Part shown: positions 9,487 through 10,178 of the stretch, piece after piece | Layout: every line of letters starts with the position of its first letter | Position numbering within the stretch: the first letter of the stretch is position 1 | Source: a virus | Taxonomy: Duplodnaviria > Heunggongvirae > Uroviricota > Caudoviricetes | Length of the DNA: 10,783 bases | Direction: 5' to 3' (one strand) | Virus record (IMG/VR): IMGVR_UViG_3300025288_001461 | Program-made: the position numbers and the translations under genes | The notes under the pieces: generated by a model | What the model saw: the letters and a program-made list of their open reading frames with translations, nothing else | Databases searched by the model: none | Told to the model about the DNA's origin: nothing

Positions 9487-9490
9487 CTAA

Positions 9491-9841
9491 ATTTTTGCTA
9501 CAGGTACAACAGGCATTATTTTGGAAAATATTTTAGAACAAACAGTAACCAAATTTTAAAGTGGTCTATTGAGGGGTGATTTGCAAATTGGTTCAAGAAT
9601 TGAAGAAGGAGAAATTGAGATGATTATTTTCTTTTGTAATCCACTTGAGCAACAACCACATGACCCAGATGTAAAAGCCTTATTACGTATTGCCTCTGTT
9701 TGGAATATTCCTGTTGCATGTAACCGTTCCACAGCAGATTTTCTTATATCTTCACCATTAATGAATTAAAATTATGAAAGAAAAATTCAAGACTTCAGCC
9801 ATTACAATAATCGGATGAATCATACAGGAATTAAATCTTGA
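9491..9841 (+). pseudogene. mgsA: Methylglyoxal synthase remnant, 5'-truncated with in-frame stops
   Basis: One frame reads IFATGTTG...[15 protein letters not shown]...IIFFCNPL...[52 protein letters not shown] stops are at 9488, 9557 and 9767. GPLGGD has become GLLRGD and WDP has become CNP. The N-terminal ~40 codons are absent. Confidence 0.9.
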
Positions 9842-9844
9842 TTT

Positions 9845-9874
9845 TTGATTTTTTTCATAATTATGATATAATTT
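9845..9874 (+). promoter_or_regulatory. Sigma70-type promoter of the RNase P RNA gene
   Basis: TTGATT (9845-9850), 16-nt spacer, TG-A-TATAAT (9864-9872). The predicted start site (~9878-9879) coincides with the 5' end of the P1 helix. Confidence 0.75.
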
Positions 9875-9876
9875 GT

Positions 9877-10178
9877 AAAAATTTTGTGGTGAGACAATCG
9901 CAAGTTAATAACTTGAGGAAGTTCAGGACACACGCAAAAGGCGAGTAGGAGATAGTTGTTCGTAAGGATGAGTGAATTAAGGTGTTAACTTTATGCTATC
10001 GTTAATACTACCGTGATATAGTGTGCAACACAAACAGTACTTGAGAACCTTTTGCTTATAAGTACGGGTTGTGGCACCTTTGACCACTTTAAAAGGTGGC
10101 GAGGACAGTGAAAGCTGTAGATTAATGATTGTTACTCGTAAGAGACACAAAATCCTGGCTATGAACCACAAAATTTTT
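9877..10178 (+). ncRNA. rnpB: RNase P RNA (divergent, compact bacterial-type ribozyme)
   Basis: P1: 14 perfect bp, 9877-9890/10165-10178. P2: GACAAUC 9893-9899/GAUUGUU 10127-10133. P3: CAAGUU 9901-9906/AACUUG 9910-9915. CR-I: GAGGAAGUUCAGGA 9915-9928, pairing as P4 with CR-V ACACAAAAUCCUGGCUA 10145-10161 with a bulged U. P5: CACAC 9929-9933/GUGUG 10021-10025, then CAA. P15: CACAA 10029-10033/UUGUG 10069-10073, preceded by GGG-U. P18-like: ACAGU-GAAA-GCUGU 10105-10118, then AGAUUAAUG. P19: CUC-GUAA-GAG 10135-10144. GC content is visibly higher than the flanks. Confidence 0.92.

Follow-up and report, generated by a model that had tools for sequence, protein, structure and literature searches.

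Ribonuclease P (RNase P) RNA is a ribozyme that trims transfer RNA (tRNA) precursors; three bacterial types are recognised, A, B and the uncommon C, which are told apart by the very elements at issue here. The window, the whole 10,783-nucleotide (nt) stretch of viral DNA analysed here, carries on its plus strand an RNase P RNA gene in which a pseudoknot of type A and a hairpin pair laid out as in type B are found together; the original prediction for this locus read the combination as chimeric and suggested that it may represent a distinct structural subclass. The locus raises the question of whether parts of two RNase P types were joined in one RNA, or whether one type took on the layout of the other. 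The gene spans about 284 nt (9886-10169, plus strand; matched by Rfam family RF00011 and an nhmmer profile of viral relatives) and probably encodes an intact, reduced RNase P ribozyme with a catalytic domain on the type A plan, which belongs to a phage-associated lineage and is not an A/B recombinant; catalytic activity and a role in tRNA processing are predicted from its sequence.

The type A side of the arrangement is centred on P6, for which the prediction proved correct. The 5' strand of P6, GCAAAAGG (9934-9941, plus strand), directly abuts P5 with no spacer and is the perfect complement of the 3' strand CCUUUUGC (10048-10055), giving eight Watson-Crick pairs; sequence reading and a script both place the latter strand in the P17 loop, i.e., within the 17-nt loop of the GUACUU/AAGUAC hairpin carried on P15. 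These segments form the sole perfect 8-base-pair (bp) complement within the RNA. A complement of this length arises somewhere in 41% of dinucleotide shuffles and is therefore unremarkable by itself, while one between these two segments was seen in 14 of 5000 shuffles. The decisive backing for P6 is covariation among relatives; across 21 close relatives, seven of the eight pairs are altered on both sides and 93.5% of the alignment cells are paired. At least ten distinct P6 sequences occur in the family, and the alternatives found in relatives include GUGAAAGA/UCUUUCAC, GGCAAGUG/CACUUGCC, GCAAGGGA/UCCCUUGC, GCCGAAUG/CAUUCGGC, GCGGAAAU/GUUUCCGC, GGAGAG/CUCUCC and GAGCAG/CUGCUC, with CUCAACA/UGUUGAG and UCCAAG/CUUGGA in other clades; the P6 of the window is wholly Watson-Crick, in which it surpasses several relatives.

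P15 and the P17 stem are likewise backed by covariation in the 21 RNAs, which establishes the type A arrangement of P6 with P16/17. P15 is a 3-bp helix (CAC 10029-10031 / GUG 10071-10073) that is paired in 100% of cells and covaries at two of its three pairs, the variants in the alignment being CAC/GUG, GCC/GGU and GGC/GCU. The P16/17 hairpin (10037-10065; stem strands 10037-10042 and 10060-10065) is also paired in 100% of cells, and five of its six pairs vary on both sides. The 3' side of L15, GGGUU (10066-10070), runs into the 3' strand of P15, ending at 10073, and its GGGU is unvarying over the 21-sequence alignment. In type A the GGU of L15 binds the 3'-CCA end of tRNA, based on work in E. 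coli and T. maritima (PMC3672288, PMC5066622); by analogy, the GGGU of the window would be its tRNA-CCA-binding loop.

A 48-pair structure, derived by hand with P6 written as a pseudoknot, was scored on the 21-sequence MAFFT alignment (A1); the observed scores were reached by none of 500 shuffles, and the 84.6% pairing over the structure dropped to 31-45% once the 3' partners were slid by one to three columns. The 3' strands of P2 and P4 are misplaced by MAFFT due to the P19 insert of the window, and their poor pair counts are therefore artefacts. In the window every helix, re-derived by script, is fully paired and all 66 columns invariant in the alignment are kept. The bacterial RNase P core is complete, with GAGGAA, a P4 with its bulged U, the J5/15 adenines, the L15 GGGU, AGAUNAAUG (CR-IV) and ACAAAA..GGCU (CR-V); these elements are also invariant in the 21 relatives, where AGA..AAUG and ACA.AA..C..GGCUA are unvarying. 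P4 itself is a variant, GAGGAAGUUC / GGCUA (9915-9924, 10157-10161), in place of the usual GAGGAAAGUCC / GGCUUA; it displays three changes, each of which is compensated on the opposite strand.

The hallmark of type A is P6, and that of type B is the L5.1-L15.1 contact, in which P5.1 is the obligatory partner of L15.1 (PMC5066622). The prediction treated the elements of the two types as alternatives, which is too strict since type C is a published exception; in this type, from Chloroflexi (Thermomicrobium roseum), P6, P16 and P17 occur with P10.1 and P15.2, a combination read as convergence or as an A/B intermediate (PMC7191817). In the window P6 begins at 9934, immediately after the last nucleotide of P5 (9933), and the following helix begins at 9942; P5.1 is therefore impossible, as no nucleotides are available between these helices. 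Furthermore, L15 is an internal loop on the P16/17 arm as in type A, and not a hairpin loop.

At Rfam gathering thresholds no call is made anywhere in the window. Its best Rfam match is the type B model RF00011 (36.8 bits, E 1.7e-08, cut-off 97); this alignment spans P1-P5 and the 3' third, omits 159 of 365 model positions and handles the P16/17 hairpin on P15 as a 34-nt insertion, and the RNA is therefore not cleanly alignable to the type B model. Over its full length the RNA is aligned by neither Rfam model. The 5' two thirds of the RNA submitted alone gave no RNase P match in Rfam. When whole viral records were searched one family at a time, the type A model RF00010 matched the relatives L274, L246 and L266 at 63.3, 63.5 and 60.9 bits, and RF00011 had no match in 10 viral records holding relatives. 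L274 shares the hairpin module of the window; the type A model aligns its P1-P6, P15-P17 and L15, and both hairpins are absorbed into the P18 region. The presence of P6, the lack of space for P5.1, the internal-loop L15 and the RF00010 matches of the relatives argue for a type A derivative with an inserted hairpin. The term chimeric, in the sense of carrying B-type elements, is thus not upheld, given the absent P5.1 space, the internal-loop L15 and module-sharing relatives that score as type A only; the proposed subclass survives as a lineage separate from the curated models, however as a derivative of type A and not as an A/B chimera.

The hairpin pair itself is located where it was predicted. 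Hairpin A, in the position of type B P15.1, occupies 10077-10104 (plus strand) with CCUUUG...CGAGG around CCACUU-UAAA-AGGUGG; its base consists of CC, a UUU bulge and GA opposite C, GA and GG, followed by the CCACUU/AGGUGG stem and a UAAA loop. P18 (P15.2 in type B naming) follows at 10105-10118, where ACAGU and GCUGU close a GAAA tetraloop before AGAU. The second hairpin sits where type A has P18; under the type B naming its place is that of L15.2, in which G305 of B. subtilis lies (PMC5066622).

A module of the form GCA-CC-UWU-GA-[stem-loop]-N-GA-GG, a second hairpin and AGA is common to six distinct RNAs (the window, L274, L259, L246, L324/327 and L314/317). In an alignment of these six (A2), the three module helices together have 98.4% of cells paired and nine of 11 pairs altered on both sides; the C-stem and inner stem of hairpin A are paired in 100% of cells with four of six pairs altered on both sides, both GA dinucleotides are unvarying in all six, and in P18 all five pairs are altered on both sides with 96% of cells paired. 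These compensatory changes support the coexistence of an A-type P6/P16-17 with a B. subtilis-like two-hairpin layout in one RNA; the B-type origin of that layout is not supported. Five of the RNAs have the second hairpin, and in three of these its loop is GAAA or GCAA. The GGACAG...CUGUAGAU.AAUGAUUG of the window is nearly the same as in B. subtilis; however, the stem is ACAG/CUGU in the window and L324, ACGG(C)/(G)CCGU in L274 and L259, and GUGAG/CUCAC in L246, and this replacement by covarying pairs makes the likeness a coincidence. The whole segment 10077-10126 aligns with phage relatives along its full length. A census of the 68 family members in which the anchors could be placed found no hairpin between P15 and AGA in 37, one in four and two in about 27, the latter from several clades and of unrelated sequence. 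One of the module carriers, L314:3237-3655 (minus strand), has P5 and P6 near-identical to those of the window, as does L317; in both, CR-I is CAGGAAGUUC and an insert of about 110 nt takes the place of P18 after the kink-turn hairpin.

Kink-turns are defined by a C-G-rich C-stem, a 3-nt bulge, tandem G.A/A.G pairs and then the NC stem (PMC5061560). At the sequence level the base of hairpin A matches this definition, with a CC/GG stem, a UUU bulge, GA...GA and covarying flanks, and it is predicted to adopt the kink. The loop of hairpin A is AUUGAAAC in four of the six module RNAs and UAAA in the window. In the literature searched, no paper was found to describe a kink-turn (k-turn) placed as in hairpin A.

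Relatives of the RNA were sought in IMG/VR with the unusual P4 (GAGGAAGUUC ... ACARAA-NNNN-GGCUA) and a subfamily motif. The first viral pattern tried gave a single match, which was judged to be chance. Scans with the P4 variant and the subfamily motif recovered 124 viral loci (98 distinct sequences), the longest contig measuring 373 kb; for one relative the record is a complete phage genome of 166,771 bp that has terminal repeats. tRNA genes surround the RNA in 27 of 29 viral loci checked, up to 34 in number and sometimes with a transfer-messenger RNA (tmRNA). An nhmmer profile of 15 viral relatives that excluded the window matched window positions 9911-10167 at 108.3 bits (E 7e-32), which places the RNA in the viral lineage by sequence; the same profile scored at most 13 bits on 120 ordinary small type A RNAs among the matches listed. 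In a pattern scan of metagenomes the ordinary GAGGAAAGUCC-type P4 was present in 119 of 120 small RNase P RNAs among the matches listed. The only metagenome match among those listed with the GAGGAAGUUC / GGGCU P4 variant, L145:1144-1414 (plus strand; JACCEC010477540.1), carries two hairpins ahead of AGAU, and its score with the subfamily profile is 24.7 bits. Blastn against cultured phages returned no match for the window RNA or for the family member L293, and no paper on a virus-encoded RNase P RNA was found in the literature searched. Since its scores fall below the Rfam cut-offs, the lineage is missed by standard annotation.

The family varies widely in size. Three members (L318:425-632, L321:6513-6720 and L332:11250-11456) are only about 190 nt long, with a specificity domain of about 35 nt (GUAGGAGC-GAAA-GCGUUAAACUAC) and zero hairpins between P15 and CR-IV. 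Others (L283:7453-7758 and L313:340-694, both on the minus strand, and L231) have inserts in the specificity domain with the tRNA T-arm-like sequences GGGTTCAAATCCC / GGGTTCGAATCCC, at which ARAGORN called no tRNA. tmRNA genes occur within phage tRNA arrays around the RNase P RNA (L232:6578-6966, L289:6294-6675 and L291:541-964, with L248:3280-3354 listed alongside), and one phage array contains a tRNA with the amber-reading CUA anticodon.

The other elements of the window RNA all lie on the plus strand. P1 pairs GUGGU (9886-9890) with ACCAC (10165-10169) and could extend to 9878-10177; P2 (9893-9899 / 10127-10133) is followed by the P3 hairpin (9901-9915), in which all six pairs vary on both sides in relatives. 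CR-I and the 5' strand of P4, GAGGAAGUUCAGG, span 9915-9927; P4 pairs 9920-9927 with 10154-10160 and leaves U9923 bulged. P5 (CACAC 9929-9933 / GUGUG 10021-10025) is paired in 100% of cells, with four of five pairs varying on both sides. The reduced specificity domain is 79 nt long (9942-10020, fold computed) and is closed by the helix CG-GUAG / CUAC-CG (9942-9948 / 10008-10013; 97.6% paired, with A-U to G-C covariation); in relatives this domain ranges from about 35 to about 190 nt, and that of the window leaves no space for P13/P14, with P8/P9 apparently absent as well. A conserved linker, UGAUAUA (10014-10020), lies between the specificity-domain stem and the 3' strand of P5; it is near-invariant across the subfamily as CGUGAUAUA. 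The segment 10026-10036 contains J5/15 (CAA), the 5' strand of P15 (10029-10031) and the 5' side of L15 (AAACA). The 3' end (10119-10162) contains CR-IV AGAUUAAUG, the 3' strand of P2, the P19 hairpin CUC-GUAA-GAG (10135-10144) and CR-V with the 3' strand of P4, ACAAAAUCCUGGCUAU.

Several points weigh against the reading of an intact type A-plan ribozyme from a phage-associated lineage. The best member of the Rfam clan for the window is the type B model; Rfam suppresses overlapping matches within a clan, and the type A score of the window is therefore hidden. The kink-turn of the window deviates from that of its relatives, with one C missing at the 3b position; the 3b/3n position is consequently a C-G pair plus a bulged C, and this slightly irregular kink-turn may not kink. 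The kink-turn hairpin is present in just six distinct RNAs, which is a small sample. No receptor was identified for the loop of hairpin A or for the GAAA loop of P18; P8, the usual L18 receptor, seems absent from the window RNA. There are zero tRNA genes within 40 kb of the window's contig, compared to tRNAs at 27 of the 29 viral loci, and the carrier may be a bacterium and not a phage, since a homologue of the 626-amino-acid (aa) open reading frame (ORF) adjacent to the window RNA lies on a 2.23-Mb contig.

These last two points lead to the alternative that the RNA is the ordinary housekeeping rnpB of an uncultured bacterium that is very AT-rich and evolves fast, with its layout resulting from genome reduction and with phages having copied such a host gene; this is considered unlikely, with evidence on both sides. 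The 2.23-Mb contig (L084; JGI 3300047323 Ga0495683_0000001) has 28% G+C (the carrier has 26%), and its homologue of the 626-aa ORF is 36% identical; the gene order of that ORF, NUDIX and a RecJ-like gene (about 1640 aa; 1646 aa) matches that of the window contig, and the homologues are interspersed with genes for type IV pilin, capsule and EAL/HDOD proteins. The window's contig also has bacterial-type genes (PurA, rhomboid, peptidase M3), lacks a nearby tRNA array, and the RNA has a promoter-like site of its own (TTGATT, 16 nt, TG-TATAAT; 9845-9872, plus strand), which ends 13 nt before the RNA and agrees with the consensus at 10 of 12 positions, with the TG of an extended -10 element. This site is a consensus match only, as such sites are not rarer in the AT-rich stretch than in shuffles (3 found, 2.7 expected). 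Against a housekeeping gene, the 21.8-kb syntenic stretch fetched from L084, the only part of that contig searched, contains no RNase P RNA; none was found with the 626-aa ORF homologues of L084, L086 and L087. No contig longer than 200 kb occurs in the 79-89 collection blocks holding PurA and the 277-aa ORF, the two proteins looked up, and seven of the 10 window ORFs match phage protein families. On the window's contig, about 15 kb before the window start (L335:20501-23298), a ClpP-type ORF of 201 aa matches a phage head-maturation protease (phrog_94, E 2e-51). The RNA gene adjoins a decayed mgsA fragment, and its P4 variant and subfamily signature are those found on viral contigs, in contrast to the GAGGAAAGUCC-type P4 of all but one of the metagenome RNAs listed.

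Further observations on the locus bear on the nature of the carrier. The ClpP-type ORF is followed by ORFs of 168, 124 and 382 aa that match no family and could form a head module; for the 382-aa ORF, folding from the single sequence gave a pLDDT of 39 and no usable model. Tblastn of the contig ORFs against all viral loci found no shared protein, a point against a phage origin, and the contig is absent from IMG/VR. A search of genome contigs with PurA gave just proteobacterial PurA at no more than 50% identity and no relatives of the element. Whether the carrier is a phage or a bacterium leaves the verdict on the architecture unchanged.

That the RNA is a relic of a phage RNase P gene, decaying or without function, whose complementarity and hairpins are remnants, is highly improbable. 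In favour of a relic, no tRNA array surrounds the gene, the kink-turn shows a slight irregularity and the Rfam score is below that of relatives; the gene also adjoins what looks like a pseudogene remnant, a fragment of the methylglyoxal synthase gene mgsA (9490-9769, plus strand) directly upstream of the promoter-like site. This fragment keeps the 3' two thirds of mgsA, contains an in-frame TAA, has a degraded GGD catalytic motif and lacks the N-terminal part. Opposed to decay are the 66 intact invariant columns, the complete pairing of every helix and the all-Watson-Crick P6, as well as the identical RNA region on a 71.8-kb JGI contig (L001, the one other contig read), whose locus stands for 17 places with the same neighbouring genes, while 24 contigs carry an identical neighbouring PurA gene. 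A true evolutionary chimera, in which the 5' two thirds of a type A rnpB recombined with a P15.1/P15.2 module from a type B (Firmicutes/Mollicutes) rnpB, is hardly credible; it draws on the type B best match, the Bacillus-like GGACAG segment and the type B layout of two hairpins with P19, and it is contradicted by the partial alignment far below the cut-off, the covarying second stem, the type A-only scores of module-sharing relatives, the absence of P5.1, the kink-turn base of hairpin A, the unrelated hairpin pairs of several clades and the full-length alignment of the module with phage relatives.

A bolder possibility, judged less likely than not, goes beyond the preferred reading of a phage-associated ribozyme on the type A plan: a phage-borne lineage may have independently invented a type-B-like hairpin pair on a type A P6/P16/P17 scaffold, with the kink-turn docking an A-rich loop and bracing a core that has shed most of its specificity domain, in a ribozyme that mobile elements would carry for their own control of tRNA maturation. 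In the preferred reading, the 8-bp P6 ties the P16/17 loop to the strand after P5, which would fix the P15 arm and its GGGU beside the P4/P5 active-site stack; from type A work (PMC3672288, PMC5066622), this lock is expected to let the L15 GGU bind the tRNA 3'-CCA end, and a P6 of 8 bp would strengthen it. The RNA has gained an extra hairpin between P15 and P18 with a kink-turn signature at its base. In RNase P P16/17, kinks let a terminal loop reach its receptor (PMC3672288); the kink predicted here most likely bends hairpin A back, bringing its A-rich loop against another helix as a brace. Such a brace would keep the ribozyme compact after the loss of most of the specificity domain and could make up for contacts lost with it, e.g., those with P8, the usual L18 receptor; it would match the job of L5.1-L15.1 in type B while having evolved independently.

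If true, this would be a third convergent way of bracing the RNase P core, after P6 of type A and L5.1-L15.1 of type B. The bracing of the catalytic domain varies naturally in this family, which has an 8-bp P6, a P18 that is present or absent, an optional kink-turn hairpin and a specificity domain of about 35-190 nt; the family is thus a natural deletion and insertion series for asking what RNase P minimally requires. Most of the lineage is found within tRNA arrays of large phages; should its RNAs prove active, these phages bring their own tRNA 5'-processing enzyme, for which no case was found in the papers that could be searched.

Of the closest known systems, the phage-associated miniature RNase P RNAs share with the window RNA the GAGGAAGUUC/GGCUA variant of P4, a scaffold of type A that includes P6, and a reduced specificity domain; the window copy differs in lying outside a tRNA array, on an element of 26% G+C, and belongs to the minority with both the kink-turn hairpin and P18. 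With type A (RF00010; E. coli M1 RNA, Thermotoga maritima) it has in common P1-P5, a P6 between J5/7 and the P17 loop, P15 with a GGU internal loop, a GNRA-capped P18 and the CR-I, CR-IV and CR-V cores. However, P6 of the window is 8 bp long, where that of E. coli is about 4 bp, the specificity domain is 79 nt in place of a full P7-P14, P4 has three compensated changes, P19 is present and the score falls below the gathering cut-off; moreover, a kink-turn hairpin precedes P18, whereas type A has a single GNRA P18.

The likeness to type B (RF00011; Bacillus subtilis) extends to P19 and to the two hairpins between P15 and AGAU, the latter in layout only. Unlike type B, the window RNA has no P5.1 and hence no L5.1-L15.1 contact, its P15 carries P16/17 and P6, and its first hairpin has a kink-turn base; to our knowledge, P15.1 of type B lacks such a base. 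Compared by its published description, type C shares P6/P16/P17 and a hairpin in the P15.2 position, however it is full-size, belongs to a bacterial phylum and has no reported kink-turn hairpin or P4 variant, whereas the window lineage is found on phage contigs.

RNase P RNAs with kinks have been described before, in P16/17 of type A and in archaea (PMC3672288, PMC5499556); the type A P16/P17 pk-turn or k-turn and the archaeal P12/P16 k-turns fall under the same standard k-turn description as hairpin A (PMC5061560). The kink proposed for the window has a new location, at the foot of the hairpin that lies between P15 and P18, and the P16/17 of the window is an unbroken 6-bp stem without a kink. 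We know of no L7Ae partner for RNase P in bacteria and phages. What is new is that a type A scaffold is combined with a long P6 and an extra kink-turn hairpin, within a phage-associated lineage that seems not to have been described.

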